Source: Candidatus Korarchaeum cryptofilum OPF8
Lineage (GTDB): Archaea > Korarchaeota > Korarchaeia > Korarchaeales > Korarchaeaceae
DNA: 32,000 nucleotides
Reading direction: 5' to 3'
Assembly (NCBI RefSeq): GCF_000019605.1
Contig: NC_010482.1
Coordinates: 570,001-602,000 of the forward strand
The position numbers and the translations under genes were made by a program. Of this stretch, positions 1,337 to 24,699 are shown piece by piece. The number at the start of each line of letters is the position of its first letter. Positions within the stretch are counted from its first letter, which is position 1. The notes under the pieces are model-generated. The model was not told the origin of the DNA, ran no database searches, and worked only from the letters and a program-made list of their open reading frames with translations.

Positions 1337-1398
1337 ATCTCTTCGAGATACCTTATGAAGCTCTCGGAGGTGAAAAGACGCTCCTTTCACTCGTAACC

Positions 1399-1409
1399 TT
1401 TATTTGAAA
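1399..1409 (+). promoter_or_regulatory. TATA-like box for the Zn-ribbon/GT2 operon (leaderless start at 1429)
   Basis: TTTATTTGAAA is centred about 26 nt upstream of ATG 1429. No Shine-Dalgarno-like element lies between them. Confidence 0.4.
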
Positions 1410-1428: not shown

Positions 1429-2385
1429 ATGGTATCGAAGTTCGCGGATATGCTGATAGACCTGCTCCTAAAGAAGGGAGTGAAGGAGATAGAGCCTAAG
1501 CTCGATTATGATTATGGGGTAAGTTATTATGAATCTTTAGGTATTTCTCGTGATGATTTCCCGAATTTAAATGATATTCTGATCGAGCTTGAGAGGAAGG
1601 GGATATTGAAAGGGACTAAAGTGGGGACCATACCCACCTGCCCGAATTGCGGCTCCCACAAGCTGATATTGAGGCTTCTCTGCCCGATCTGCGACTCGCC
1701 GAATATAAGGAGGGTGGAGGCTATCCATCACATATCTTGCAATTTCACCGCTCCCTCGGACATGTTCTCATCGGGGGAGATCCTGAGGTGCCCGAATTGC
1801 GGTAAGCCGTTGAGGGCAATAGGAGTCGATTACAATAAGTATCAGAACGTGATATATTGTGAGAATTGCAAGAGAGTATCTATCTCCCCCAAGCTAATCT
1901 TCATCTGTTCCGATTGCGGGGAGTCCATGAGTGAGGGCGAGTTAGATCTGAAGCCCCTATTGAGGTATGAGGTCATCGAGGAGAGGTTGCTCAAGCCCTC
2001 GCTCGAGAGAGCTATATCCGAGGGGCTCGAGAGGAGGGGGGTGGAAGTCAAGCATCCCAGTGAAGCCATAGGTGCCTCAGGCCTGACTCAGAGGTTCTCG
2101 CTCTCAGTTAAGGGAGGGGATTCGGAAAGATTCATAGACATCGTTGAATCTAGCGAGGGCGTGGGGGAGGAGAAAGTCCTAGCTCTATTCGGGAAGCTCT
2201 TCGATATATCAGCAAAGGGAGGCGTGCTAGTAGCGATACCCAGAGCTACTCAAGAGGCGAAAACCCTAGCTAAGAGCTTAAACATAGAGATAGTTGAGGC
2301 ATCGAACTTGGATGAGGCATTGACGAAGCTCCATTCCCTGATAAAGGAGGAGAAGGGGAAGGATCGCCGAGAGGTGGTAGGGTGA
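1429..2385 (+). CDS. Multi-zinc-ribbon protein, paralogue 1 (wHTH-like N-terminus, five CxxC pairs, alpha/beta C-terminal domain; TackOD1-like?)
   Basis: 318 aa. Cys motifs are C71PNC, C85PIC, HHISC104, C121PNC, C144ENC and C160SDC. The N-terminus has LIELERKGIL (wHTH-wing-like). It is collinear with the next ORF, including GVDY and the C-terminal G.SG...F..V...D.V...AK...LV pattern. Confidence 0.55.
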   Translation: MVSKFADMLIDLLLKKGVKEIEPKLDYDYGVSYYESLGISRDDFPNLNDILIELERKGILKGTKVGTIPTCPNCGSHKLILRLLCPICDSPNIRRVEAIHHISCNFTAPSDMFSSGEILRCPNCGKPLRAIGVDYNKYQNVIYCENCKRVSISPKLIFICSDCGESMSEGELDLKPLLRYEVIEERLLKPSLERAISEGLERRGVEVKHPSEAIGASGLTQRFSLSVKGGDSERFIDIVESSEGVGEEKVLALFGKLFDISAKGGVLVAIPRATQEAKTLAKSLNIEIVEASNLDEALTKLHSLIKEEKGKDRREVVG

Positions 2386-2389
2386 TCCC

Positions 2390-3331
2390 ATGCACGAGAG
2401 GGCCCTGAGGCTCATCGACCTGATAATAAGCGAGGCCTTAGATGAGATAAGGCCGAGTTTCGATCCCCTGAAGGGTTACGAGTACTGCTTGAGGGGGGAG
2501 TGCGAGGGAGTAGGGGAGGCCCTAGAGTATCTATACGAGAGAGGGTATCTCAGGAAGGAGTTGCATGATAGAGTTGCTAGCTGCCCGAATTGCGGATCCG
2601 AGGTATTCCTTCTGAGGGCTAAATGCCCTTACTGCGGTTCATTGAACTTCTCTAAGGGCATAGTAATAGAGCACTTGAGCTGCGGTTACTCAGGGCTCGA
2701 GGAGGAGTTCATGAGTCCTGATGGGAGGAGGATATGCCCGAAGTGCGGGAAGGAACTGAAGGCTCCTGGGGTAGATTACATCAGAGTAGCTGACATTTAC
2801 AGATGTGCATCTTGCAAGGAGGCCTTCTCAGTTCCCTTATATTCTTATAGATGTCTGAATTGCGGTCATGAGGGCCCAATGATAGAGCTGGTCCCCAAGG
2901 AGGTCTACAAGTATCTGGTCGTCAGGGAGGCCTTTGAGAGCGATCCTATTAGCAGGAAGATCCTCGATATCGTGAGGAAGCTTGCTGATATAGGATATAG
3001 GGTAGAGGGCCCTAGAGCTAGAGTTAAGGGGAGATCCGGCGCAGAATACGATTTCACGATAGCTGTATGGTTAGAGGGATCTGATGAGCCCATAGCAGTA
3101 CTGGATTTCGTCAGAGGTCCTATTGATGATGAGAGACTCCTCTCATTCTTCGCCAAGTCCCTCGATGTCATGGCGAAGGAGAGGATATTAGTTACGCAAG
3201 CGAAGGACAGCTTAATGGAAGCGAAAGCGAGTAGGTTGGGCATAAGGGTCTTCGAGCTGGAGGATGAGGATCTCGTAGGGAAGATAGGGGAAGTGCTGCT
3301 TTCCCTGCATGTAAAAGGGAGTGAAACTTGA
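2390..3331 (+). CDS. Multi-zinc-ribbon protein, paralogue 2 (same architecture as 1429-2385)
   Basis: 313 aa with CPNC, CPYC, EHLSC, CPKC, CASC and CLNC at positions equivalent to paralogue 1. GAGGTGGT lies upstream of ATG 2390, which is only 4 nt after the previous stop. Its own stop overlaps the GT2 start. Confidence 0.55.
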   Translation: MHERALRLIDLIISEALDEIRPSFDPLKGYEYCLRGECEGVGEALEYLYERGYLRKELHDRVASCPNCGSEVFLLRAKCPYCGSLNFSKGIVIEHLSCGYSGLEEEFMSPDGRRICPKCGKELKAPGVDYIRVADIYRCASCKEAFSVPLYSYRCLNCGHEGPMIELVPKEVYKYLVVREAFESDPISRKILDIVRKLADIGYRVEGPRARVKGRSGAEYDFTIAVWLEGSDEPIAVLDFVRGPIDDERLLSFFAKSLDVMAKERILVTQAKDSLMEAKASRLGIRVFELEDEDLVGKIGEVLLSLHVKGSET

Positions 3332-4797
3332 GGAGGATATATCTCACCCTCTTCCTGATCTTCCTCAATATCTCAGTGATGCCCTTCTTCATAGGTGGGA
3401 CGCACACATTCCTCGCTTACGCTTTCGCTCTGATATTCGCTATCTATTTCTCAGCTCAAGCTTTCATATCGATGGATAGCAAGCTGCTAGGAGGGGCCGC
3501 TCTCTTCTCCCTCCTCATAATAGTCCCCATCTCCTTAGCTTTAGTAGCCTCCCTGGAGAGCCTCAGCACCTTCGAGACGATCCTCTATGGGATAATATCA
3601 TTCGGCTTCACTTTGATATCTTGGCATTACCTCCTCTTGGTGCCCCTAGCTGCCTACTATAAGAGGATGGAGGAGATAGAAGCGAGGAAGCCCCTGCTCT
3701 ACAGGCCTCTGGTGAGCGTGATAATCCCAGCTAGGAATGAGGAGAAGGTAATAGGATCCACGATAAGATCAGTTCTGGAGTCCGATTATGAGCCCAAGGA
3801 GGTAGTGGTCGTCGATGATGGATCTACGGATAGGACATTCGAGATAGCATCAATTTACCAGGGGCCCAAGGTCAAGGTCCTCAGGAGGGAGCTAGGAGGC
3901 AGGGGGAAGGCCAGAGCCCTCAACTTCGGCCTGAGATTCGCGAGAGGCGAAGTCATAGTTCTAATGGATGCTGACACTATAATAAGCAGGGATGCTATAA
4001 AAGAGCTAGTTAGAAAGCTTCAGGACCCCAGGGTATCTGCCGTAGCTGGTAATGTCATGGTGAGGAATAAAGTGAACTTATTGACGAAACTGCAGGCGAT
4101 AGAATACATAGCAACTTTCCACCTATTCAGGAAGGGATTGAGCGTATTGGGGGCTGTTCCAATAATATCTGGAGCTCTTGGGGCATTCAGGAGAAACGTT
4201 TTAGAAAGCAGTGGTCTCTACGATGCAGATACTTTAACAGAGGATTTCGACGTGACATTGAAGGCCCTCAAGTCCGGAAAGATCGTTCAAGCGAGTTCAT
4301 ATGCTCTAGCTTTCACAGAAGCCCCTGAGAAGCTGAAGAGCTTGTATAGGCAGAGGTTGAGGTGGTATAGAGGGGCTTATGAAGTTCTAATAAAACATAG
4401 GGATGCATTCTCGCTCTCAGGCTTGACTATGCTTGACTTCTCACTGATCCTGATGAACAACTTAATAATACCTCTGATAGACTTCCTATCCATAATATCG
4501 ATAATCATAGCAATATTGAGGGGCCTCATATGGCCCTTGATCATCCAGATAATCCTCTTCTCCACCCTACAGATATTAATAAATCTCTTCATATTGCAAT
4601 TGGCTGAGGAGAGAGATATCTCACTAGTATTTCTCCCGCTATTCGCAATAGGCTACAAGCAGTTCCACGAGATCTTAATGCTGAAGTGCTTCTTCGACGT
4701 TATAATAGCTAGGATGAGGGGGAAGAGCTTCTCATGGACTTTCATAGAGAGGAGGGGTCTAGAGGAGCCTAAGTTGAGAGCTGGCCCCCAATTTTAA
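3328..4797 (+). CDS. Processive family-2 glycosyltransferase (cellulose/chitin/PNAG-synthase-like membrane polysaccharide synthase)
   Basis: 489 aa with N-terminal TM helices and a GT-A core: VSVIIPARNEE, VVVVDDGSTD, LMDADT (DxD), LTEDFD (TED) and QRLRWYRG (Q(Q/R)xRW). A C-terminal block of TM helices follows. The TTG start at 3328 overlaps the upstream TGA (3329-3331). Confidence 0.8.
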   Translation: MRRIYLTLFLIFLNISVMPFFIGGTHTFLAYAFALIFAIYFSAQAFISMDSKLLGGAALFSLLIIVPISLALVASLESLSTFETILYGIISFGFTLISWHYLLLVPLAAYYKRMEEIEARKPLLYRPLVSVIIPARNEEKVIGSTIRSVLESDYEPKEVVVVDDGSTDRTFEIASIYQGPKVKVLRRELGGRGKARALNFGLRFARGEVIVLMDADTIISRDAIKELVRKLQDPRVSAVAGNVMVRNKVNLLTKLQAIEYIATFHLFRKGLSVLGAVPIISGALGAFRRNVLESSGLYDADTLTEDFDVTLKALKSGKIVQASSYALAFTEAPEKLKSLYRQRLRWYRGAYEVLIKHRDAFSLSGLTMLDFSLILMNNLIIPLIDFLSIISIIIAILRGLIWPLIIQIILFSTLQILINLFILQLAEERDISLVFLPLFAIGYKQFHEILMLKCFFDVIIARMRGKSFSWTFIERRGLEEPKLRAGPQF

Positions 4798-4830
4798 GAA
4801 GATTTTTTAACGCTGCATTCATGCAAGCTC

Positions 4831-5694
4831 ATGCTCAGAGGATTAGGCGATGGCATTCAAGTGCTCCCGGGGAGCCCCTCAACTCTCTTCATCCCTTCAT
4901 CGGATGGCTACTACATAATAGATCCGGGATCTTCCGAGGAGAGGAGAGCTGATATAGAGGCTCAGGGGAAGATAAAAGCTGTTCTGATAACTCACTCCCA
5001 CTCAGATCATATATTAGCCGCTAGGGATTTGAGATCCGAACTAGGCGTTTTCGCTCCCCTCTCCGAGACCCCCTTCATAGAGTCCCCGGAGCTCAGGGAG
5101 GCCACTACGTTCGGGGGTTACGCTCCCTGGAACTTGATATTCCACGTAGAGGCAGTTCCCCTGAAAGTGGATAATCCATTCAAGCTGCCCTTCAATTTAG
5201 ATGGGATAGAGGCGATTCCCCTACCCGGCCATACATTCGGGCAAGTGGGTTATGTAGCCAGAGGGATTTTGTACGCTGCCGATTCCTTCTTCGGAGATAA
5301 ACTCCTGAAGAACGTTGTGATCCCTTACTTCTTGGATTTCGAGACCGCTATGAGTACTATAGAGTTCTTGAGGGATAATGCGAGGGAATTCGAGAAGATA
5401 GTCCCCTCACACGGGCCTATAGTCGAGGGGAAGAGGGCTATAGAGCTCCTAGAGATGAACATGAGGGCGATGGAATCGATAAGGGAGAAGGTGATATCGA
5501 TCCTCAGGGGGAGGAAGATGTGCGTCGAAGCTCTATCAGCTAGGATATTGAGGGAGGGAGGTGCTGAACTGACCCCGGGATCTGTAATACTCTCCTCAGT
5601 GACTATAAGGTCCCTGCTCTCCAGGCTCTATGAGAGGGGCATAGTGGATGCTGAAGCTAGTGAGGAAGGCATACTCTGGAAGCTCAACGATTGA
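4831..5694 (+). CDS. Metallo-beta-lactamase-fold hydrolase with C-terminal wHTH-like tail
   Basis: 287 aa with VLITHSHSDH (HxHxDH), PLPGHTFGQ and VPSHGP. The C-terminus has LLSRLYERGIV...GILWKL (winged-helix-like). It starts 34 nt after the GT2 stop on the same strand. Confidence 0.75.
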   Translation: MLRGLGDGIQVLPGSPSTLFIPSSDGYYIIDPGSSEERRADIEAQGKIKAVLITHSHSDHILAARDLRSELGVFAPLSETPFIESPELREATTFGGYAPWNLIFHVEAVPLKVDNPFKLPFNLDGIEAIPLPGHTFGQVGYVARGILYAADSFFGDKLLKNVVIPYFLDFETAMSTIEFLRDNAREFEKIVPSHGPIVEGKRAIELLEMNMRAMESIREKVISILRGRKMCVEALSARILREGGAELTPGSVILSSVTIRSLLSRLYERGIVDAEASEEGILWKLND

Positions 5695-7423
5695 GGAAGC
5701 CCATCAGACGGTCCAGGATACCGGCTCTAGCCTTCATCTCCACTAGAGCTGGATGAATCGGATCCCTGAGATCGAACTTGAGGTCAATAAGTTGCTTTTC
5801 ATCCTTAACAGTGACCTGAAGCAGCGGATGTTCATATCTATAGCTCATCACCCTCACCTCTCCCCCTACCGCTCCCCTAACTATCCTCTCAACGGTCTCC
5901 TTCAGGATCCTGGGCTCTACCTCCATTGAACCATCCTCAAAGGAGTAGCGAACCACGAAGAGGAACATCCCCATCCGGTCCATGCCATTCAAATGGAGGA
6001 AAGCATTCACTCTCCCCCTCCTTCCCTTGAAGAGCGACTCAGGTTTTATCTTCCATAAGATCTCACTGGGGTTCCTCTCAAAATCCAGTCTTAGGCTCAC
6101 TCCCAAGTTGTATTTCGAGGATAGCTCCATCTCAGCCTCCCTTATTATATCTTCCAGGCATCCCTTTCCCAGGAGGATCCCCTCATCCCCCTTCAGGAGG
6201 AAGGAGAGGCAAGCATCACTACCCTCGAACTTACAGAAGAGCAGATATCCAGAGCTCTTCGGATCGTAAGCTGCTCTCTCAACTAGCAGCGACATATCCG
6301 GGGATCCCCTGAGATCGTTCAGTTTGAAGACCGAGAACTTCCATGAGCTCCCTCTCCTCGATTTGACGTAGAGCAGGGAGTCATCCACATCATAATCGAG
6401 CTCATCTGCATTCAATATGCGCTTCAATGCGCCTTCATCAACTTTCTTACTCAGGATATGCACTTCACCGCTGGAAGCATCGTAAGAGACGTTCAATACC
6501 ACGAAATTTATGGTCAGGGTCATGATGAAGCTCACGCGAGTCTCACCATCCCTCTCCACCACTCTGTAAGATCTAGCGATATCCTCCATGGATAGCTCGA
6601 TCATGGAGGGATCTACGGAGGTTATCCTCGAGATCTCCCTTATGACGTTCCTCCTCATTTCCTCTAATCCCGGGAGCTTCACCCTATTCATCGCTCCAGA
6701 GTACCTGTTGACCCTGATGAGCTCCAACTCATCGCCCATCTTCACTATGAAGTTAGCGTAGCCATCATCTGATCCCCTCGCTAGGATCTCGATTCCTACA
6801 GATGCCTTCTTTTTATCGAACAGGGCATCCCATGACCTCGTTATAATCCTCCTCCCGGCCCCTTGATCCGAATTCTTGAGGGACTCCAAAACAGTGGCTT
6901 CTAGTTCATCCAGCGGTATTGGCTTCAATGAGACTCTCCTTCCCCTTTCACTCAGCTCCGCCTCTCCGATCTCCCTGTCTCCTAACTTCAGGGAGTACTT
7001 GAGCTTCCTCGCTATGAGGACGGTTTCAGCATTCAATACTTTAACTGAACTCTTGGGGACCCTCAGGGACTCCGAGAGGGCTTCTAATAAAAATTCTCTA
7101 GCTTCTCCCCTGGATATCTCGCTATTAACCTCTAACTCGATCTCCCCACCTAATTCGAAGCTGAGGTAGTCCGAAGCCCTGAAATCGGTCAATTTGGGTT
7201 TTGGGGAGTTCAAGACGAGGATCTTACCGCTCTTATACAGATATGGGACGAAATCCTTCCTCCCGGATCTATTCGTATAACTCACTTGCCAGTTAATGAG
7301 GACTCCGTAATCGACTGAAGCCCATTTGAGCTCAAATTTGACCTCAGAGGGATCTATTCCGCTCTTCATAACCTCAGAATCTAAGGAAATGCTCAAGTTC
7401 TTGGGTATCAGGACGATCTCCAT
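5684..7423 (-). CDS. Uncharacterised cytoplasmic protein made of about 6-7 PepSY-like helix+beta modules (partner of the BrxL-like ATPase)
   Basis: The ORF track gives 5684-7480. I prefer ATG 7423-7421 (MEIVLIPKNL...) because GGTGGAG sits 6 nt upstream and the longer version overlaps the upstream gene by 73 nt. There is no signal peptide or TM segment. Repeated modules open with amphipathic helices: ISRGEAREFLLEAL, LDELEATVLESL, LEEMRRNVIREI, LEDIIREAEMEL and LKETVERIVRGA. Confidence 0.5.
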   Translation of the reverse strand: MEIVLIPKNLSISLDSEVMKSGIDPSEVKFELKWASVDYGVLINWQVSYTNRSGRKDFVPYLYKSGKILVLNSPKPKLTDFRASDYLSFELGGEIELEVNSEISRGEAREFLLEALSESLRVPKSSVKVLNAETVLIARKLKYSLKLGDREIGEAELSERGRRVSLKPIPLDELEATVLESLKNSDQGAGRRIITRSWDALFDKKKASVGIEILARGSDDGYANFIVKMGDELELIRVNRYSGAMNRVKLPGLEEMRRNVIREISRITSVDPSMIELSMEDIARSYRVVERDGETRVSFIMTLTINFVVLNVSYDASSGEVHILSKKVDEGALKRILNADELDYDVDDSLLYVKSRRGSSWKFSVFKLNDLRGSPDMSLLVERAAYDPKSSGYLLFCKFEGSDACLSFLLKGDEGILLGKGCLEDIIREAEMELSSKYNLGVSLRLDFERNPSEILWKIKPESLFKGRRGRVNAFLHLNGMDRMGMFLFVVRYSFEDGSMEVEPRILKETVERIVRGAVGGEVRVMSYRYEHPLLQVTVKDEKQLIDLKFDLRDPIHPALVEMKARAGILDRLMGFLNR

Positions 7424-8877
7424 CTGAACTCCACCTCGAGCTCGTTGGAATATTCGTGAGGAAGCTTCAGCCTCAACCAATCCCTCACTAGCTTCCTCAT
7501 CTCTATCGCGATATTCACTATCCTCTCCATGGTCTCCCTATCCCTGACCTTGAGGTCGGGGTAGATCAGCTTTATAGCCCCGGAGACGAGCCTTATCAGG
7601 GCCCTCTCATCCCTTATACTGACGTTCCCGAACTTCATGAAGCTCCTCGCGATTGTTGAGGCATCGAACTTCCTCATCTCATGCAGCCAGTATGATATGA
7701 GATCCAAGGAGAGGCCCTTCCCTCTCGCTATATGCTCCTGCGAGCTCCTTATCTTCGGGAGCTTCCAGCCAGGTAATATGCCATGTATCCTGTCCATCAA
7801 GGCTGTGTCCCTGGCGAACTCCGGAAGGAAGCTATCGATGTCGCGGGGCGAGCTGGGTATACTCTCAACGTTTCCGATGAAGACGAGGGAACAATCGCTC
7901 GATACAAGCTTCCCTCCCCTCTCGTAATTCCCGCTCTCCATATAGTCCTTGAGCTTCCCTATCATCTCCTCAGTCCCGCTCAAGCTCAAGTAATTGATCT
8001 CATCGAATACTACGGCATCCATAAGGCCTATGAGCCCTATTGTCTTCGTCAGCTTATTGTAGAAGAGTTCGCTGGGGGAGGCCCTCCCTCCCGATATTAC
8101 CCTGACCATGTGGGAGATGTTCTTGTAGAGATAGCTCTTCCCCGAAGCCCTGGGCCCGAACTCCATCATATTCACGTTGCACTCTATGAGGGGGACCAGC
8201 CTCATCAGATAGAGGATCTTCTGCTCGAAATCATAAGAGCTGGGATTGAGACCCAAACTCTGTATTAGGATATCCATCCACTCCTCATCAGTGAAATGGG
8301 GCCTCGCCCCTCGGAAGTATTCGATATCGAAGCTGCTTATCTCATATGGATAGAACTCCACCATCAGTACGGGCTCTGATCTCTTATCCCCATATCTTCT
8401 CTCATCATCGAAGATCAGCTTCCCTATCCCCCAGACACCGTTCCTAAGCAGGTTCTCATGCTCCTCCAGTATCTTGGGATCTATCATAGCGTTCTTGAGG
8501 TTCAGGACGGGTATCTCGAGCCTATGGACCCCTGACTTTATATCAGTCACTACTTTGAAATCGTCCAGTATGAACTGCTCCCCCTCACTCATGAGCTTAT
8601 TCAATACGACGTCTTTCTCCTCGGGCTCCGGCCTCAGCTCCCTCAAGCGCTCGTGAATTTGGGAGGAGCATTGGGATAGAGGTTTATCGCTGCATTCCTT
8701 CAGGATCAGATACTCCTCTATATAACGCGGGATCTTATAAGCGGAGAGGTTCAAGTGGAATCCCTTCTCAACCACGCAGCTGGAATCGAAGAATATCAAA
8801 AGCTTTCTCTCCAGATCCCTCGATAATGTCGATTCTGAGATGAACTCCCTATCCTGTTCCTTCATCAGATCGAACAC
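7408..8877 (-). CDS. BrxL-type (TIGR02688/Lon_2-like) AAA+ ATPase without a Lon protease domain
   Basis: 489 aa. N-terminal region: KIPRYIEEYLI. ATPase region: FTDEEWMDILIQSLGL, Walker A FGPRASGKSY (nt 8134-8157), ISGGRASPSELFYN, Walker B AVVFDEINYL, KDYMESGNYERGG, LVFIGN and MDRIHGILPGWKLPK. All are collinear with BREX BrxL as I remember it. The track start is GTG 8877. The TATA-like CAATTTTTATAAG (rc of 8888-8900) fits a leaderless ATG at 8865 (MKEQDREF) better. Confidence 0.75.
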   Translation of the reverse strand: MFDLMKEQDREFISESTLSRDLERKLLIFFDSSCVVEKGFHLNLSAYKIPRYIEEYLILKECSDKPLSQCSSQIHERLRELRPEPEEKDVVLNKLMSEGEQFILDDFKVVTDIKSGVHRLEIPVLNLKNAMIDPKILEEHENLLRNGVWGIGKLIFDDERRYGDKRSEPVLMVEFYPYEISSFDIEYFRGARPHFTDEEWMDILIQSLGLNPSSYDFEQKILYLMRLVPLIECNVNMMEFGPRASGKSYLYKNISHMVRVISGGRASPSELFYNKLTKTIGLIGLMDAVVFDEINYLSLSGTEEMIGKLKDYMESGNYERGGKLVSSDCSLVFIGNVESIPSSPRDIDSFLPEFARDTALMDRIHGILPGWKLPKIRSSQEHIARGKGLSLDLISYWLHEMRKFDASTIARSFMKFGNVSIRDERALIRLVSGAIKLIYPDLKVRDRETMERIVNIAIEMRKLVRDWLRLKLPHEYSNELEVEFRWRSS

Positions 8878-11761: not shown

Positions 11762-14248
11762 ATGAGACGCTCACTACTGCTGATACTGCTCTTCCCCCTC
11801 CTGCTCGCTAGTTGCTATCAGGACTCATACTATCAGGGACTTGGGGGAATGAGGGGAGGGGCTAAAGTGCTGCTGTTCAAGCAGGGGCTTCCCGGGGATC
11901 CAGTAGCTATAGTGCCCGTGGGGAGCCTCATAGTCGCAGCGTCATCTGACGGGACCATCACGTACATGGACTCTAAGGCGGCCCTGAGGACGCTCAGCAT
12001 ATGCTCCGGCAGATTGGTCAAGATGGCCCACGGGACAACATCGAGGGGAGGAGCTATATATGCTATCTGCTACAGCAGGGAGAAGCAAGTGGCTTCGCTA
12101 GCGATAATAATGGATAGCGGGAGCTTCAGGTTCTACGAGCAGCCAGTTCCATCCAGGTTCAATTCCTCCGGGACGGGCTTCATCTACTCCAGCATGAAGA
12201 GGGACTTCCCAGCCGCAGTAGAGCCTCCGGCACCTCTGGTAGCTGATATCAATGGGGATGGGTACGATGAAGCTCTCGCATACTTAGATGGCCACCTCCT
12301 CTACTTCGAATCCTCCCTGTCGGATCCGAAGCAGTATCAAGTGGATGCCGTGCTGGGCCTCTCCGTGGAGGGAAGGAGCGTATTCGTATCCACAGCTTCC
12401 GGCATATTCATATGGGGGCCCGATGGCCTCAAGCCCTACTCAAACATAGGGTGCTCCTCCCTCCCCATACCTGTGGACTTCGATGGTGATGGGAAGCTGG
12501 AAGTGGCCTGCAGGCGCGGGGACATCGTCCAAGTGGTGAAAGGGGACTCAATCATATTCAGGGCTGAGGGAGGTGCCACGGATCCAGCTGTATATGATCT
12601 CAACGGAGATAAGAGGCCAGAGCTCATCTACATACTCAACGATGGGACATTAGTGGCTAGGTCCCCCAGCCTATCCTGGAGGGCCAAAGTAGAGGCTCCT
12701 TACAACAGGCCCGTAGTGGCGGATGTGGATGGGGACCTCAGGCCCGAAGTTATAGTAGCGGCTGGCCAATACGTCTACTGTTTCTCCAACGATGGAAAGG
12801 AGAAGTGGAGAGTGAGCCTCAGGGAGTTCAGCGGATGGGTATCAGGAGGGGAAGTAGACTTCCAGAGGTACATGAGGTTCGAGGCGAAGACGCAGCCAAT
12901 ATTACTTGATTACGATGGGGACGGGCTCCTCGAGATCTTAGTGGGGATAGGGGCTTATTTGGAGCAGGGAAGAGTGGCTCTTTTGGATGAGATGGGTAAG
13001 AATGAGGCCCCTAAGGTGGAGATAATCTCCCCATCGAACTACACGAAGGTGGGGAAGTACGTCAAGATAACTTTCAAGGTGACTGATGAATCGAGCCGGC
13101 TGAGGGCTAGGATCCTATCATCGACTGAGCTTTGGAGCGGCACTGTGGAATCAGGAAGTATTACGAGCGTGGAAGTCCCTTCCTTCGAAAATATCGTTAT
13201 TGAGGCATCCGATGGTATCCTGACGACTAGCTCGAAGCTATACCTGAAGGTGGATACGCAGCCACCCAAGATGGTGATAGAGCCCTCTAACATGTCGAAG
13301 ATAACTGAGGGCACCAACATAACGGTCAGGATAATAGCTCCGATAGATGAGTACGCATTCCTAACTGTCTACCATGGGACTCCTGGGAACTGGATAAAGA
13401 TAATAGAGAGGAGGGTGTGGAAGACATCTGTAGTGAGCATAAACGTCACTCCTATAGTTGAGATGGTCAGCGGATACAGGCTCTTCAAGTTCCATCTAGT
13501 CGATAAGTACGGGAACGTCGAGGACGTCGTGATGAGGTACAGGATCGAGAGGAGTAAAGAGGAAAGAGTTAATTCCAGCGTTTCGCTGATCTTGAGCGTG
13601 AACAACCTGATCTCTAAGGAAGCCAGGGTGAATTGCACTCTAATCGGGCTGGATAGAGCTTCACTCTATTACGGGGATGGAGCGGATTGGAAGTTGATAA
13701 AGGAAGTGAGTGGGAATGAGAGCATCCTTTGGGATGTATCGGGCCTGAAGGATGGGAAGTACATATTGAAGCTAGAATCGGGGAGTGTTAGCTCCCTGAA
13801 GGAGGTCACTATAGATAACACACCGCCCTCCATCAAGATAGAGGCCGATAAGAGAATTCCAGTGGGGGGGACTGCCATCGTGAGGGTTGAGGGGGACTTC
13901 GAGAGGCTGTACTGGGACTTGGATGGCGATGGTATCTTCGAGACAGCGGGCCCCCCGCTAGCTAGGATAGAGGGGAAGGAGCCGGGGAGGATCAGGATAA
14001 ATGTGATGGGAGTGGATGGAGCTAATAACAGCGCTACGGCTGGAGTTGAGATAGAGGTCTTCGAGGCAAATGAAAAGATTGAGGCAACTGAAGTGGAGAG
14101 CTCTAATGCATCGATAAGCAATCCTCAGATCTCATATGCTTCTATAATCAGGCCCGAGTTACTAGCATTGGCCCTCCTTTTAGTAGCTATAGTGATGATG
14201 AAGAGCTCGAGGAGGAAGAAGTCATCTAACCCGTGGAAGAAACGTTAA
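11762..14248 (+). CDS. Cell-surface protein: lipobox signal peptide, FG-GAP/VCBS beta-propeller repeats, Ig-like domains, C-terminal TM anchor
   Basis: 828 aa. The N-terminus is MRRSLLLILLFPLLLASC (L-A-S-C lipobox-like). There are six Ca-binding-like D.(D/N)GD motifs: DINGDGYDE, DFDGDGKLE, DLNGDKRPE, DVDGDLRPE, DYDGDGLLE and DLDGDGIFE. The C-terminus is LLALALLLVAIVMM followed by KSSRRKKSSNPWKKR. Confidence 0.7.
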   Translation: MRRSLLLILLFPLLLASCYQDSYYQGLGGMRGGAKVLLFKQGLPGDPVAIVPVGSLIVAASSDGTITYMDSKAALRTLSICSGRLVKMAHGTTSRGGAIYAICYSREKQVASLAIIMDSGSFRFYEQPVPSRFNSSGTGFIYSSMKRDFPAAVEPPAPLVADINGDGYDEALAYLDGHLLYFESSLSDPKQYQVDAVLGLSVEGRSVFVSTASGIFIWGPDGLKPYSNIGCSSLPIPVDFDGDGKLEVACRRGDIVQVVKGDSIIFRAEGGATDPAVYDLNGDKRPELIYILNDGTLVARSPSLSWRAKVEAPYNRPVVADVDGDLRPEVIVAAGQYVYCFSNDGKEKWRVSLREFSGWVSGGEVDFQRYMRFEAKTQPILLDYDGDGLLEILVGIGAYLEQGRVALLDEMGKNEAPKVEIISPSNYTKVGKYVKITFKVTDESSRLRARILSSTELWSGTVESGSITSVEVPSFENIVIEASDGILTTSSKLYLKVDTQPPKMVIEPSNMSKITEGTNITVRIIAPIDEYAFLTVYHGTPGNWIKIIERRVWKTSVVSINVTPIVEMVSGYRLFKFHLVDKYGNVEDVVMRYRIERSKEERVNSSVSLILSVNNLISKEARVNCTLIGLDRASLYYGDGADWKLIKEVSGNESILWDVSGLKDGKYILKLESGSVSSLKEVTIDNTPPSIKIEADKRIPVGGTAIVRVEGDFERLYWDLDGDGIFETAGPPLARIEGKEPGRIRINVMGVDGANNSATAGVEIEVFEANEKIEATEVESSNASISNPQISYASIIRPELLALALLLVAIVMMKSSRRKKSSNPWKKR

Positions 14249-16074: not shown

Positions 16075-16234
16075 TCTCATCGAACTTCATGCTAAGCTTT
16101 TAGATTCGTCGGCGATAGCTCGAGATTTGATCATCGAGATTCGCTGAGAGGTCATATTGGTGGCATGCACTGGATGACCTGCTCAACGATCTAGCGAAAG
16201 ATCCTAAAAATTATCGGGGAGTGAGGGATAAAAC

Positions 16235-16248
16235 TTTATTATATTTTA
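16235..16248 (+). promoter_or_regulatory. TATA-like box for the 16263 gene
   Basis: CTTTATTATATTTT is centred about 22 nt upstream of ATG 16263. This argues against the GTG 16221 start in the ORF track. Confidence 0.4.
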
Positions 16249-16262
16249 CCTCTTCAGTCCAT

Positions 16263-17492
16263 ATGCCCATCAAGGATATAGTGGGTGGTAAGCTCCCGAA
16301 GGGCTCTCAGGTGGAGCTGGAGGGTACGATAACTGAGCTTTTACCGATATTCCTGATGGGAGGATCCTCCTATGAGAGGTTCTCGCTGGAGGATGGTACT
16401 GCGAGAATAACGGTAATCATGCCATCATCCGATATCTACCTCCTCCCGGGTGATAGGGTCAGAGTGGTTGGGAGAGTCAGGCCGTGCCCTTACGCTCCAG
16501 CTGTGGATTGCATCGAGACCGAGAGCGAGTACGTGGAGATAAAGGAGTGGAAGTGGATAGAGCCGAGTAGGAGGAGGAGTGAGAACAGGAAAGGCCCCTT
16601 CAATATGAGCGTGCTCCTCCACATGACTAGGCTGGATGAGGAAGTGATAAGGGGGATAGTTGAGACAGATCTAGATCCCGTTAGGATAAGGGAGAGGTTT
16701 GAAAGCTGTATAAATTCAGGAGAGAGTTGCGATCACTTGCTAGATATGCTCTCCGCTATGACGATGTACTCCATATTCCTGAGGGATTTGGATGCAGCTA
16801 GCTCAGTTAGAATGACCCTGAAATTATTGGAAACTCTACCTATCGGTAAAATACTGAACTTGCTGTCCGATATGGTGGAGACTCTAGTGAGTAGGGAGGG
16901 CCTGGCCCCCTATCTATCTGGAGAGGGTAAGGGGATCGTCGAGAGGTATCCTGTGGCCGATGAGTCGAGCTTGAAGGAAGTAGTTGAGCTCAGAGGCCTG
17001 GCTGATCGCCTAATAAATGATTTAAGGGAGGGTAAGAAGGAATTCATAATTCTTGAATTCTCGAGGGGCGAGGAACTGGAGAAGATAAGGAAGGTCGTTG
17101 AGATAGTCGCTGGGATAACTGGATCCAAATTGCTCCTACTATATGCATCCTCAGTGGCTGAGGATACCCATAATATCCTCTCCGAGATAAAGGAGACTTC
17201 TAAAAACTTGAAGGAGGATGAGAGAGCTATCCTGTACTTAGAAGCCCCTGAGCTCCTATTTCCGAATGAGAAGATGCTTGGTCTGCTGAAATTACCCGAT
17301 GAGGCTCTTGAAGGAGTATCTGATCTCAAATCGGAGTTCTCTAAGGTATTCAGGGAGCTCTCCAGCAAGATATTGATAGTGGCCGCTACTGTCTCCAGCT
17401 CTATGGTGGATGGGAACTCCATAGGGAGGCCCGTGGTAATACCGCTTGAGACCGGCGTTGAGATCGCTAGCGATATGGAGTACAGCATCTAA
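16263..17492 (+). CDS. OB-fold protein with a C-terminal degenerate (P-loop-less) classical AAA domain
   Basis: The N-terminus, GSQVELEGTITEL...FSLEDGTARITVIM...LLPGDRVRVVGRV, is an OB/tRNA_anti-like pattern. The C-terminus has AAA spacing: FIILEFSRGEELEKI in place of Walker A, then AILYLEAPELLF 60 aa later in place of hhhhDE, then ILIVAATVSSSMVDGNSIGRPVVIPLE 47 aa later, resembling VIAATNRPD.LD.A..RPGR. Confidence 0.45.
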   Translation: MPIKDIVGGKLPKGSQVELEGTITELLPIFLMGGSSYERFSLEDGTARITVIMPSSDIYLLPGDRVRVVGRVRPCPYAPAVDCIETESEYVEIKEWKWIEPSRRRSENRKGPFNMSVLLHMTRLDEEVIRGIVETDLDPVRIRERFESCINSGESCDHLLDMLSAMTMYSIFLRDLDAASSVRMTLKLLETLPIGKILNLLSDMVETLVSREGLAPYLSGEGKGIVERYPVADESSLKEVVELRGLADRLINDLREGKKEFIILEFSRGEELEKIRKVVEIVAGITGSKLLLLYASSVAEDTHNILSEIKETSKNLKEDERAILYLEAPELLFPNEKMLGLLKLPDEALEGVSDLKSEFSKVFRELSSKILIVAATVSSSMVDGNSIGRPVVIPLETGVEIASDMEYSI

Positions 17493-17574
17493 AAAATGTT
17501 TGTCCCTCTCAATAACGGGGCTCATATTAGTATCCCTGGAGCTCATCCCTACGCTGGGCGCTCCTTTAAGAGTA

Positions 17575-17607
17575 AGTTACCCCCCTAAGTTAGTTAGGGG
17601 GGTAACT
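17575..17607 (+). promoter_or_regulatory. Perfect 11-bp GC-rich inverted repeat (hairpin) immediately 5' of an ATG
   Basis: AGTTACCCCCC (17575-17585), an 11-nt loop TAAGTTAGTTA, then GGGGGGTAACT (17597-17607). The 3' arm contains the only SD-like G-run before ATG 17610. Confidence 0.6.
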
Positions 17608-17655
17608 AGATGTACTTCGACCGAGCCTAAGACCAAGAGGGAAGACCTCTTCGAT

Positions 17656-18648
17656 ATGGAGGCGGAGCTAAGGGAACTCTCAGATGGCCTCAAGTGGGAG
17701 AAGCTTGTTATAGTGACTGGTTTAAGGAGATATGGGAAGACATCGCTCATATTGACATATCTGAATGAGGAGAAGCTCGACAACATCTTCCTCGACTGCA
17801 GGCTCCTCCCTCCAGGGATGATAAGCATGGGCTCCTTCCTCGAACTATTGGAAGCTGAGCTCACCAGGAAGTCATGGGCTAGAAGGATATTGAGCAGAGT
17901 TGAGGGCATAAGCATATCCGAAATAGGGATAAGATTCAAGGAGAGGGATCTCAACTCCCTAATAAGTGCCTTACATGCATTGGAGGGGAAGATCTTAGTT
18001 ATAGACGAAGCTCAGGAGCTGAGGAGATCGAGGCATAGGTTCGATTCTATAATAGCTTACGCTTACGATCACCTCGACCTCAAGATAATCTTATCGGGCT
18101 CTCAAGTCGGCTTATTATATAGGTTCCTCAGGGTGGACGATCCCGAAGCCCCTCTTTACGGCAGACCCTTCAAGGAGGTGAGGATGAGGAAGCTGAGCGA
18201 TGAAGAAGCCATGGATTTCCTGAGGAAGGGATTTGAGCAGGCTGGAATGAAAGTAAGTGATGATATACTGGAGGAAGCCAGGAGGTTCGATGGGATAATA
18301 GGATGGCTCACTTACTTCGGCTTCTCGATGATCAGCAACAGGGAGTCCGTGGAGATTATAGAGAGGAGGGCCTCTAAGCTCGCCATAAGCGAGCTCGAGC
18401 ATGCCCTGAGGATATACGGGTTGGCTGAGGCAAGGTACAGGGAAGCGCTGAAAGTGATAGCTACTTTAGAGCGTGCGAGGTGGACCCGGATAAAGAGGGG
18501 GATTGAGGCGAGGATCGGTAAGATACCCAGCAATACGCTATCCTCCATCTTGAGCAACTTAGTGGATTCCGGATTCCTGGAGAAGACGGAGGAAGGATAC
18601 AAGATAGCTGATCCAGTTTTGAGGAGCGGAATTTTGAGATATTGGTGA
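17656..18648 (+). CDS. Archaeal ATPase family protein (Arch_ATPase/ATPase_2 + C-terminal DUF234 wHTH)
   Basis: Walker A is TGLRRYGKTSL and Walker B is LVIDEAQEL. The C-terminus has LSSILSNLVDSGFLEKTEEGYKIADPVL (DUF234-like). The ORF track starts at 17446, but that extension overlaps the upstream gene and crosses the hairpin. ATG 17656 is the first in-frame ATG. The ancestral start may be ATG 17610, which is out of frame (see findings). Confidence 0.75.
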   Translation: MEAELRELSDGLKWEKLVIVTGLRRYGKTSLILTYLNEEKLDNIFLDCRLLPPGMISMGSFLELLEAELTRKSWARRILSRVEGISISEIGIRFKERDLNSLISALHALEGKILVIDEAQELRRSRHRFDSIIAYAYDHLDLKIILSGSQVGLLYRFLRVDDPEAPLYGRPFKEVRMRKLSDEEAMDFLRKGFEQAGMKVSDDILEEARRFDGIIGWLTYFGFSMISNRESVEIIERRASKLAISELEHALRIYGLAEARYREALKVIATLERARWTRIKRGIEARIGKIPSNTLSSILSNLVDSGFLEKTEEGYKIADPVLRSGILRYW

Positions 18649-23637: not shown

Positions 23638-24699
23638 ATGAAAAAGAGAGATGAGGGGATCAATGATGCGGATCTCGCTAAGCTCTCTCCCCGCATAATA
23701 CCTTACGGTAAATACAATGAAGTCTTAGAGGGACTCTCCAGGGACCTATTTTCAAATATAATAGAGCTCGTGGAGAGGGCTGAGCTCTACATCCCCAAGC
23801 TGAGGGAGATATTACCGATAACTCAGCTGAATAATGAGCTGATAAGCCTTAGGGTCGCCGCCGTCGATGCAGGATCCAACGGGAAGGATCTAATAATAGG
23901 CTATCAGCCGATAAGCATAGCTGTAGGAGCTGCCTTCAAGGACGGGATCAAGATATGCGATCCCCTCCTAGCTACTCTGAAGCCCCCATCATCCAGCCTA
24001 GATGATGAGGAAGGCGTTAAGCTCTCATCCATAATAGGCTACTATTTGATGTACAACTTAGCATCCGTTCTCCTAGATAAGAGCGATCTAATATTGATAG
24101 ATGGGCCCCTCTTCCTGCCCAGATCATACTACGCGCCCAGGGGCAGGAGCTACTCCAACTCCTACTTGGAGGTGTATGAAGCTACTCTGCGAACCCTCTC
24201 ATCCCTTCTCAGGGAAGCCGAAGCATCGGGCAAATACATTTTGGGCGTTGTGAAGAGGATAAGGAGCCATTACATTTCCCAATGGCTCGGGATAGATGGC
24301 CTCTCGGATTCCCTGATATCCTCGCTCTCAATAAAGGAGGGAGAGGCTTTAGGCCCTATACCGATCAGCGGCGGATGGGAGGAGGTCGCCAGTTATCTGG
24401 GAGATGCCAGGAGCTTCAGGCCCTGGGCCATATTCTTGAGGAGGGGGAGAGCCCCTATAAGGCTAGATCTCCCCGAATATTCTGTAGATAAAGCTTACGC
24501 TCTAGCTTCCTACATATATTCAATATCGGAGCCGAGCACAGGGCTTCCGATGCCCATATTGGCCGTGGATAGGCTCTCCAAGGTCACGGATAAGCAGAGC
24601 TCCCTCATATACAGGATGATTTTGAGGGAGGCTAGGAAGAGAGGAATTAACTCCGAGAAATTGGCTCTATTCTCGATTCAGAGGGGTGAAATTGATTGA
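23638..24699 (+). CDS. nurA: NurA-domain nuclease-like protein
   Basis: 353 aa with LRVAAVDAGSNG (first catalytic Asp strand), DLILIDGPLFLP (second Asp) and the C-terminal GLPMPILAVDRLSKV (NurA-type P..L..AD/H motif). Its stop overlaps the start of the HerA-like gene. Confidence 0.6.
   Translation: MKKRDEGINDADLAKLSPRIIPYGKYNEVLEGLSRDLFSNIIELVERAELYIPKLREILPITQLNNELISLRVAAVDAGSNGKDLIIGYQPISIAVGAAFKDGIKICDPLLATLKPPSSSLDDEEGVKLSSIIGYYLMYNLASVLLDKSDLILIDGPLFLPRSYYAPRGRSYSNSYLEVYEATLRTLSSLLREAEASGKYILGVVKRIRSHYISQWLGIDGLSDSLISSLSIKEGEALGPIPISGGWEEVASYLGDARSFRPWAIFLRRGRAPIRLDLPEYSVDKAYALASYIYSISEPSTGLPMPILAVDRLSKVTDKQSSLIYRMILREARKRGINSEKLALFSIQRGEID

Follow-up and report, generated by a model that had tools for sequence, protein, structure and literature searches.

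TackOD1 (PF18551; arCOG06883) is the 'Thaumarchaeal output domain 1' of Galperin et al. 2018 (PMC5847659) and Makarova et al. 2016 (PMC4858521). The domain carries eleven conserved Cys residues arranged as five CxxC pairs and one HxxC (PMC5847659). Its function was called 'obscure' in 2018, and its published context consists of response regulators and thaumarchaeal type IV pilus loci (PMC5847659, PMC4858521). PelD, BcsE and PssE, on the other side, are bacterial receptors of cyclic di-GMP (c-di-GMP) with a degenerate GGDEF domain, which exert post-translational control over exopolysaccharide synthesis (PMC8461298, PMC4125290). In this study, we analyzed a stretch of 32,000 nucleotides from Candidatus Korarchaeum cryptofilum OPF8 (NC_010482.1, positions 570,001 to 602,000 of the forward strand; hereafter the window), in which two adjacent genes, P1 and P2, encode TackOD1 proteins and are translationally coupled to the gene of a processive family 2 glycosyltransferase (GT2). 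The pairing of a TackOD1 gene with a GT2 gene recurs in both Bacteria and Archaea. P1 and P2 belong to the published TackOD1 family, with the five CxxC pairs and the HxxC in a module of about 180-190 aa, and stand-alone, REC-fused and bacterial forms occur, as those authors noted. They differ from the published members in their coupling to a processive GT2, in forming a tandem pair of paralogues, and in a C-terminal domain with restriction-endonuclease (REase) fold. P1 and P2 contain no REC domain, and no kinase, REC or pilus gene was found in the 32-kb window, the remainder of which encodes ordinary chromosomal functions; relatives of the two proteins show both published contexts.

The genes and sequence elements of the locus are listed below by their positions in the window.

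1398-1406, forward strand: TATA-box-like sequence CTTTATTTG, read from the sequence some 27 nt ahead of the ATG of P1
1429-2385, forward strand: P1, 318 aa; TackOD1 module (residues 5-182) and nuclease-dead PD-(D/E)xK-fold C-terminal domain (residues 183-318)
1639-1652, forward strand: 14-mer TGCCCGAATTGCGG, encoding CPNCG of the first zinc ribbon of P1
2390-3331, forward strand: P2, 313 aa; paralogue of P1 with identical architecture; its stop codon overlaps the GT2 start
3328-4797, forward strand: GT2 synthase, TTG start, 489 aa; PgaC/NodC/cellulose-synthase-like, membrane-embedded, of the processive type
4831-5694, forward strand: metallo-beta-lactamase (MBL)-fold hydrolase, 287 aa, glyoxalase-II-like; last gene of the apparent operon

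The four open reading frames, the 4-nt spacing between P1 and P2, and the overlap of P2 with the TTG start of GT2 all agree with a preliminary description made from the sequence of this DNA; the spacer between the GT2 and MBL genes, given there as 34 nt, is in fact 33 nt. The TGA stop of P2 (3329-3331) overlaps the TTG of GT2 (3328-3330) within the string TTGA, and a GGAG-type ribosome-binding motif lies a few bases upstream of the GT2 start. The box CTTTATTTG is identical in the closest relative (locus L001) and has an AT-rich equivalent in a distant relative (L003). By analogy with standard archaeal promoter architecture, it is a putative promoter of a leaderless or short-leader P1-P2-GT2-MBL transcript. 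Based on the 4-nt gap, the overlap of P2 and GT2, and this TATA-like box, the four genes look like one operon. All of them are under purifying selection (dN/dS 0.07-0.17 against L001), with values of 0.118 for P1 and 0.169 for P2.

P1 and P2 proved to be full-length paralogues (31% identity, E=1e-36), and the resemblance to TackOD1 noted in the preliminary description was confirmed by a Pfam hidden Markov model (HMM) search far above the cutoff. Against a gathering threshold of 32 bits, P1 scores 122.1 bits (E=2.6e-35, residues 5-182) and P2 116.5 bits (E=1.3e-33, residues 7-176), and both matches span nearly the whole 188-position PF18551 model. An alignment with 44 family members places the five CxxC pairs and the HxxC at equivalent positions in both proteins, as the preliminary description had stated. 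The ligand pairs of P1 are C71/C74, C85/C88, H101/C104, C121/C124, C144/C147 and C160/C163, and P2 has equivalents. Residues C71, C74, C85, C88, H101, C121, C124, C144 and C147 are invariant in the 44 diverse relatives, C104 and C160 are nearly so, and the Cys/His ligand positions are at least 90% conserved. This ligand count would fit three tetrahedral zinc sites of the Cys4 or Cys3His type.

The AlphaFold2 model of P1 (predicted local distance difference test score, pLDDT, 94.9) displays a short winged-helix-like alpha/beta start, a beta-rich zinc-ribbon body, and a C-terminal alpha/beta domain. When the TackOD1 module was modelled alone (pLDDT 96.2) and compared with solved structures by Foldseek, no significant neighbour was found (best E=0.26, template modelling score, TM-score, at most 0.23). 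A sequence search of P1 against PDB chains gave weak zinc-finger noise only, NCBIfam returned far sub-threshold weak zinc-ribbon matches and no curated family for P1 and P2, and the HMM searches put the two proteins in no well-characterised family of unrelated role. TackOD1 is a widespread domain, as 2,056 clusters at 50% identity matched P1, and the 90% cluster of P2 includes RSN68762.1 / WP_125741840.1. Public P2 orthologues are labelled 'DNA-directed RNA polymerase subunit RPC12/RpoP', 'transcription elongation factor Elf1' or 'hypothetical protein'; the RpoP and Elf1 labels look like mis-annotations arising from zinc-ribbon matches.

The C-terminal domain is the only part of the whole P1 model that Foldseek places, and it falls in the restriction-endonuclease fold: the best match is AF1548 (PDB 1y88; E=1.4e-6), and Cdn1 and Can2 (nuclease domains), MspJI and EcoT38I come next. 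Together with the family alignment, this supports the early view of an REase-like domain lacking a complete PD-(D/E)xK motif. Mrr_cat of Pfam matches P1 at a borderline 21.2 bits against a cutoff of 21 and does not match P2. The catalytic D...(D/E)xK is absent in P1, P2 and most of the family: the Asp of strand 2 is Ser in P1 and Thr in P2, and strand 3 reads D-I-V in P1, with no Lys, in a family whose consensus is 'VIDxx'. One relative matches an 'inactive REase' family. Thus the P1 domain shares its fold with Mrr_cat and PD-(D/E)xK proteins such as AF1548 and the Can2 and Cdn1 nuclease domains, but unlike these nucleases the P1/P2 family leaves the catalytic residues unconserved; what it retains is GxSG, an acidic residue in strand 3, and K256...D259 in the helix after that strand. 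The C-terminal motif G.SG...K..D, pointed out at the start, is thereby confirmed as conserved (G215, S217, G218, K256 and D259), and this pocket suggests ligand binding by the domain.

The GT2 enzyme is of the processive-synthase type, as anticipated, with the motifs DDGSTD163, DAD214, TED304 and QRLRW342 and transmembrane helices on both sides. On proper alignment, its TED, QRLRW and GALGAFRR correspond to TED, QRGRW and FFCGSAAVLRR of the cellulose synthase BcsA, for which structures are solved (PDB 4hg6/4p00). Hydropathy peaks at residues 4-22, 29-47, 58-76 and 85-103 before the GT-A domain and at 369-397 and 404-422 after it, which corresponds to about four N-terminal and at least two C-terminal transmembrane helices. 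The protein matches Pfam GT2 families, and no PilZ or other recognised receptor domain was found in it. Its best curated NCBIfam match is PgaC_IcaA (TIGR03937); since the score of 193.6 bits lies below the equivalog cutoff of 422.3, the enzyme is not a PgaC orthologue. Identity of the window GT2 to TackOD1-linked GT2s is 36-42% in other archaea and 30-40% in bacteria. All TackOD1-linked GT2s fall in one PgaC-like group, and each best-matches PgaC/IcaA below cutoff. In two archaeal-type loci, L008 (287-11191) and L026 (327-5321), the TackOD1-linked GT2 is accompanied by a large CE4 polysaccharide deacetylase, and L008 additionally has a GH18 chitinase-family enzyme. These CE4 and GH18 neighbours give indirect hints of a polymer based on N-acetylglucosamine (GlcNAc), possibly partly deacetylated.

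Conserved linkage of TackOD1 homologues to GT2 genes elsewhere had been named as the test of the proposed association, and the result is positive in bacteria and archaea. A genome scan was performed on one genome per GTDB species with a 102-nt degenerate DNA pattern (C..C-x10-CP.C.S-x10-H..C) built from the invariant Cys/His scaffold, which was validated on known loci and has 64% sensitivity on known members. All counts given here and below refer to the matches listed, namely at least 120 tiles of 8 kb, 109 of which hold a genuine TackOD1 by HMM. Among these listed matches, 50 of the 110 TackOD1 genes have a PgaC-like GT2 gene immediately downstream on the same strand, usually overlapping, and the 50 span at least 12 class-level lineages from both domains of life. 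The remaining TackOD1 genes are distributed as follows.

GT2 adjacent on the opposite strand: 2/110
GT2 within 1.6-3.3 kb: 4/110
GT2 absent where 1.5 kb or more could be seen on each side: 14/110
tile edge too near to judge: 40/110

Conversely, 52 of the 57 GT2 matches among the listed tiles adjoin TackOD1, and no GT2 was present in the control tiles holding chance pattern matches (0/11). The linked lineages comprise Bacteroidota (29/32 of the listed matches, including Segatella copri), Alpha-, Gamma- and Zetaproteobacteria, Lentisphaerae-type bacteria, Balneolaceae, Nitrososphaeria, Bathyarchaeia, Hecatella and Wolframiiraptor; in one locus from Planctomycetota, GT2 adjoins TackOD1 upstream on the opposite strand. 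Within Korarchaeia, synteny of EamA-TackOD1-TackOD1-GT2-MBL persists at protein identities as low as 47-50%, and the 4-nt overlap is preserved there. The TackOD1 gene of Thermovibrio guaymasensis (Aquificota) likewise overlaps the downstream GT2 gene by 4 nt, and the metagenomic bacterial loci L009 and L132 show the same TackOD1-to-GT2 arrangement. The order is reversed in the archaeal-type locus L008, where GT2 precedes TackOD1 and the pair is flanked by the CE4 and GH18 genes. The pairing had been framed as an archaeal one; it is at least as common in bacteria. We consider it highly probable that the conserved, translationally coupled TackOD1-GT2 pair marks a functional link.

Three architectures of the TackOD1 proteins were distinguished and are given with their main lineages, with GT2 adjacency counted over the informative listed loci.

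Class A, TackOD1 with REase-like domain (the type of the window): Korarchaeia, Hecatella, Wolframiiraptor and some Bathyarchaeia; GT2 adjacent in 3/21
Class B, REC or pseudo-receiver, TackOD1 and a C-terminal domain of about 150 aa: Bacteria; GT2 adjacent in 46/52
Class C, REC-TackOD1 only: Nitrososphaeria; GT2 adjacent in 3/9, and nearby in 3 more

Since all three architectures are found beside GT2, TackOD1 is the constant partner and the flanking domains vary. A profile of the class B C-terminal domain (A3) matches diguanylate cyclases in the PDB (E=1.4e-11) and thus denotes a GGDEF fold. Individual Pfam GGDEF matches were obtained for 10 of 34 class B members; GG(D/E)EF is present in none of the 34, so that the domain is catalytically degenerate, and an RxxD-like I-site is retained in about a third of the members. 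No GGDEF domain was found by Pfam in P1 or P2. In at least 23 bacterial loci, the TackOD1 gene is found mid-operon, with an MFP-like gene on one side and GT2 on the other. A widespread bacterial locus type is represented by L109 of Segatella copri (4683-7666) and found also in L016, L022, L094, L067, L088, L084, L132 and others. It encodes 472-aa and 686-aa proteins of no known family, an MFP-like 380-aa protein, a (pseudo)REC-TackOD1-degenerate-GGDEF protein and a PgaC-like GT2, often with a UDP-sugar dehydrogenase, and its TackOD1 partner has no NCBIfam model. The bacterial N-terminal extensions were considered as membrane anchors, an idea that was dropped: the extensions are soluble segments of the REC or pseudo-receiver-like type, and transmembrane helices occur only in L048, a GT2-linked member with three predicted helices and hence predicted to be membrane-anchored.

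A second genomic context is displayed by loci without GT2, which carry genes of a T2SSE ATPase and a T2SSF platform protein and are type IV pilus-like. These belong mostly to class A, from Bathyarchaeia, Thermoprotei, Methanomethylicia and Chloroflexota. This agrees with the association of arCOG06883 with archaeal type IV pilus loci that has already been published (PMC4858521).

From the observations made here on domain identity, synthase motifs, operon structure and conserved pairing of the genes, we favour the reading that P1 and P2 serve the GT2 synthase as cytoplasmic subunits with an accessory or regulatory function, with a probability of about 0.5. The synthase would polymerise and export a beta-linked polysaccharide, which most likely has a high GlcNAc content. 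P1 and P2 would be soluble, cytoplasmic and made in step with the synthase through translational coupling, and would probably form a hetero-oligomer dedicated to it. Coupling to the membrane machine may fall to the zinc-ribbon TackOD1 module. The flanking domain, which varies, would then serve as the input, which may be the nuclease-dead REase fold with its GxSG...K..D pocket here, and REC and/or degenerate GGDEF elsewhere. The same logic would hold as for PilZ in BcsA, PgaD with PgaC, BcsE, PelD and PssE in bacteria. The reading is favoured because the TackOD1 gene directly precedes the enzyme gene and lies mid-operon in bacteria, a position typical of subunits rather than transcription factors. 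It is favoured also because TackOD1 is fused to a receiver and a degenerate GGDEF, which is the device of PelD, BcsE and PssE, because the winged-helix-like segment and the C-terminal domain are acidic, and because one GT2-linked member is predicted to be membrane-anchored. The physical interaction, the direction of regulation, the ligand and the polymer are what we infer from these data.

Several points weigh against the subunit reading. No TackOD1-GT2 fusion protein was found in limited samples. The link to GT2 is the minority context in class A, the class of the window (3/21, as above), and the pilus-like context is the majority there, which tempers the claim for this subfamily. In addition, the scan is biased by its pattern and by the 8-kb tiles, and shows recurrence rather than proportions that could be taken as unbiased frequencies. 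Winged helix, zinc ribbon and REase fold are common nucleic-acid-binding modules, one relative carries an extra TrmB helix-turn-helix (HTH), and a DNA-binding regulator would account more easily for the switch of target operon implied by the T2SSE/T2SSF neighbours. From gene order alone, a subunit cannot be told from a transcription factor.

In the main rival reading, which we regard as possible, though on the unlikely side, the two proteins are DNA-binding transcription factors that autoregulate the synthase operon. The winged-helix-like start and the zinc ribbons of TackOD1 would contact DNA, relatives would regulate pilus operons, and REC, degenerate GGDEF and REase-like domains would be the signal inputs. 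TackOD1 was defined as an output domain of response regulators (PMC5847659), and its presence beside two unrelated machines, GT2 and T2SSE/T2SSF, is expected if only the regulated operon changes. The N-terminal part gives weak Foldseek matches to GntR-type winged helices (TM-score 0.22), and L060 has a weak DeoR-HTH match. However, no HTH family of Pfam matches P1 or P2 at E<=0.1, and throughout the family the winged-helix-like segment has a net acidic charge (P1 -2, P2 -6, family mean -2.8), as does the would-be recognition helix within it. The C-terminal domain is net acidic across the family as well, and the zinc-ribbon core is mildly basic (mean net charge +3.2), the latter being in favour of DNA binding. 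Translational coupling directly before an enzyme, the mid-operon position in bacteria, and the predicted membrane anchor of one member all count against a transcription factor. A comparison of three sequences upstream of P1 revealed no convincing conserved operator or palindrome beyond the TATA-like box. Moreover, some relatives add a separate HTH (TrmB, or the wHTH of REC-wHTH-TackOD1; PMC5847659), an addition that would be superfluous were TackOD1 itself the DNA-binding part.

A broader proposal, which we put forward as speculative, is that TackOD1 is a fold-novel coupling or receptor module that docks directly onto PgaC-like synthases as well as onto the platforms or ATPases of type IV pili and turns these machines on or off, with the dead REase-like domain as an archaeal sensor of a small-molecule or nucleotide signal. 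TackOD1 would then be a functional counterpart of PilZ and MshEN common to Bacteria and Archaea, and, if this were true, the locus would be the first described system for post-translational control of an exopolysaccharide synthase in archaea.

P1 and P2 could also act as non-regulatory assembly, localisation or chaperone factors, for example as zinc-dependent scaffolds that position synthases or pilus platforms and sense no signal. The conserved GT2 linkage would be the same in this case, the Korarchaeal proteins have no recognisable sensor domain (REC or GGDEF), and two paralogues have been kept together for a long time. The module is, however, fused to REC or degenerate GGDEF in most lineages, which indicates regulation rather than pure assembly, and the conserved GxSG...K..D pocket suggests ligand binding; we therefore find a pure assembly role rather improbable. 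Least credible by far are Mrr-like nucleases or defence or mobile-element genes that adjoin a glycosyltransferase by chance, for despite the borderline Mrr_cat score, the REase fold and a BrxL-like gene 2 kb downstream, the catalytic residues are lost, PADLOC gives no match to defence families for P1 or P2 (on which ground a defence system was rejected), the adjacency to GT2 is conserved across phyla and domains, and all the genes are under purifying selection in stable synteny, with the operon retained in L003 where the BrxL-like module is absent.

The age of the tandem pair was considered in relation to the 14-mer TGCCCGAATTGCGG, which the preliminary description had placed at about 1639, 1790 and 2582 and had taken as compatible with recent duplication or gene conversion. 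The first and the last of these positions are exact, and the middle copy begins at 1789. The copies thus occupy 1639-1652, 1789-1802 and 2582-2595, with a fourth at 2735-2748 that has one mismatch, and none is expected by chance. However, identity between the flanks of the 14-mers is only 22-48%, and a neighbour-joining tree gives the P1-type and the P2-type proteins separate orthologues, both in L001 and in the distant Korarchaeum locus L003, which is only 47-50% identical. Both gene conversion and recent duplication were rejected on the basis of these flanks and this orthologue pattern, and the duplication is old. Because the flanks have diverged, the repeat reflects the conserved CP(N/K)CG motif and codon usage (TGC makes up 82% of Cys codons) rather than a conversion tract. 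All four CP(N/K)CG copies (1639, 1789, 2582 and 2735) use CCG for Pro, a codon that accounts for only 23% of Pro codons in the long open reading frames of the window, and this choice is kept in the L001 orthologues.

The MBL-fold protein matches Lactamase_B (E=2.7e-15) and PDB 7l0b (E=5.6e-9) and is glyoxalase-II-like. There is no support for counting its gene among the conserved components of the system, as it lies beside GT2 in L001-L003 only and is Korarchaeia-specific. The preliminary description had given the protein a winged-HTH-like tail similar to the N-terminus of the TackOD1 proteins; this similarity is not significant (hhalign probability 2.3%). Neither a second-messenger phosphodiesterase nor a sharer of a homologous winged HTH found support in its family and structure matches. 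Genes for MBL, EamA, DUF354, the BrxL-like ATPase and a 598-aa protein are found together with TackOD1 and GT2 in Korarchaeia only. The gene of the 598-aa protein, which has no significant family match, overlaps that of the stand-alone BrxL-like Lon ATPase (5684-8877, reverse strand; TIGR02688, 413 bits; PADLOC BrxL, E=9.5e-99), and no other BREX genes are found nearby. The pair is present in L001 and absent in L003, where DUF354 directly follows MBL, and therefore looks like an inserted two-gene module.

Other observations concern genes located further downstream, all on the forward strand. An 828-aa FG-GAP-repeat protein, possibly with a surface or adhesion role, is encoded at 11762-14248, a few kb downstream of the synthase operon, and is syntenic in L001. 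At 16221-18648, the gene of a 423-aa protein without family match overlaps that of an ATPase_2/AAA protein with an MCM-type C-terminal winged helix, which gives weak matches to the PADLOC candidate systems PDC-S27 and PDC-S01. The region 23638-27188 contains a NurA gene followed by a HerA helicase gene (HAS-barrel and DUF87). An intein (Intein_splicing, E=6.7e-16, residues ~229-517) interrupts the HerA gene.

The preliminary description had held the arrangement to be undescribed, and indeed no searchable paper was found that reports the TackOD1-GT2 link, in a literature search that did not cover most subscription journals. Likewise, the (pseudo)REC-TackOD1-degenerate-GGDEF architecture and the Korarchaeal tandem pair are in no searchable paper, nor in the curated NCBI families. 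What is novel is an operon-encoded partner of a processive exopolysaccharide synthase that is built on an uncharacterised domain with a novel fold, whereas the domain itself and its link to pilus loci were already published. The pairing with a PgaC-like synthase gives the TackOD1 family a testable role in the production of surface polysaccharide and biofilm. It reaches Korarchaeia, ammonia-oxidising archaea, marine Proteobacteria, Aquificota, and gut Bacteroidota such as Segatella copri, and response regulators with TackOD1 output gain a plausible target. P1 and P2 are a first candidate for dedicated control of an archaeal exopolysaccharide synthase, in a domain of life where matrix regulation is essentially unknown.

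Among the known systems, PgaC-PgaD and IcaA-IcaD (PMC8461298) likewise co-encode a GT2 with a partner that has no catalytic signature. PgaD and IcaD, however, the obligatory partners in these systems, are small and integral to the membrane. P1 and P2, by contrast, are predicted to be soluble zinc proteins of about 315 aa encoded upstream of the enzyme, and no equivalent of PgaA or PgaB of the poly-N-acetylglucosamine system is present in the window. The likeness to PelD, BcsE and PssE is that of dedicated cytoplasmic proteins encoded in the operon of a synthase, and the bacterial TackOD1 partners carry a dead GGDEF fold beside GT2 just as PssE does with PssC. P1 and P2 differ from these receptors in having no GGDEF and a dead REase-fold domain instead, and the known receptors have no TackOD1. 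To our knowledge, c-di-GMP signalling is not established in archaea. PilZ and MshEN are c-di-GMP receptors that serve GT2 synthases (BcsA, NfrB) and type IV pilus ATPases. TackOD1 is similar to neither in sequence or fold and has no neighbour in the PDB, but it displays the same dual association, with processive GT2 enzymes and with type IV pilus machinery.

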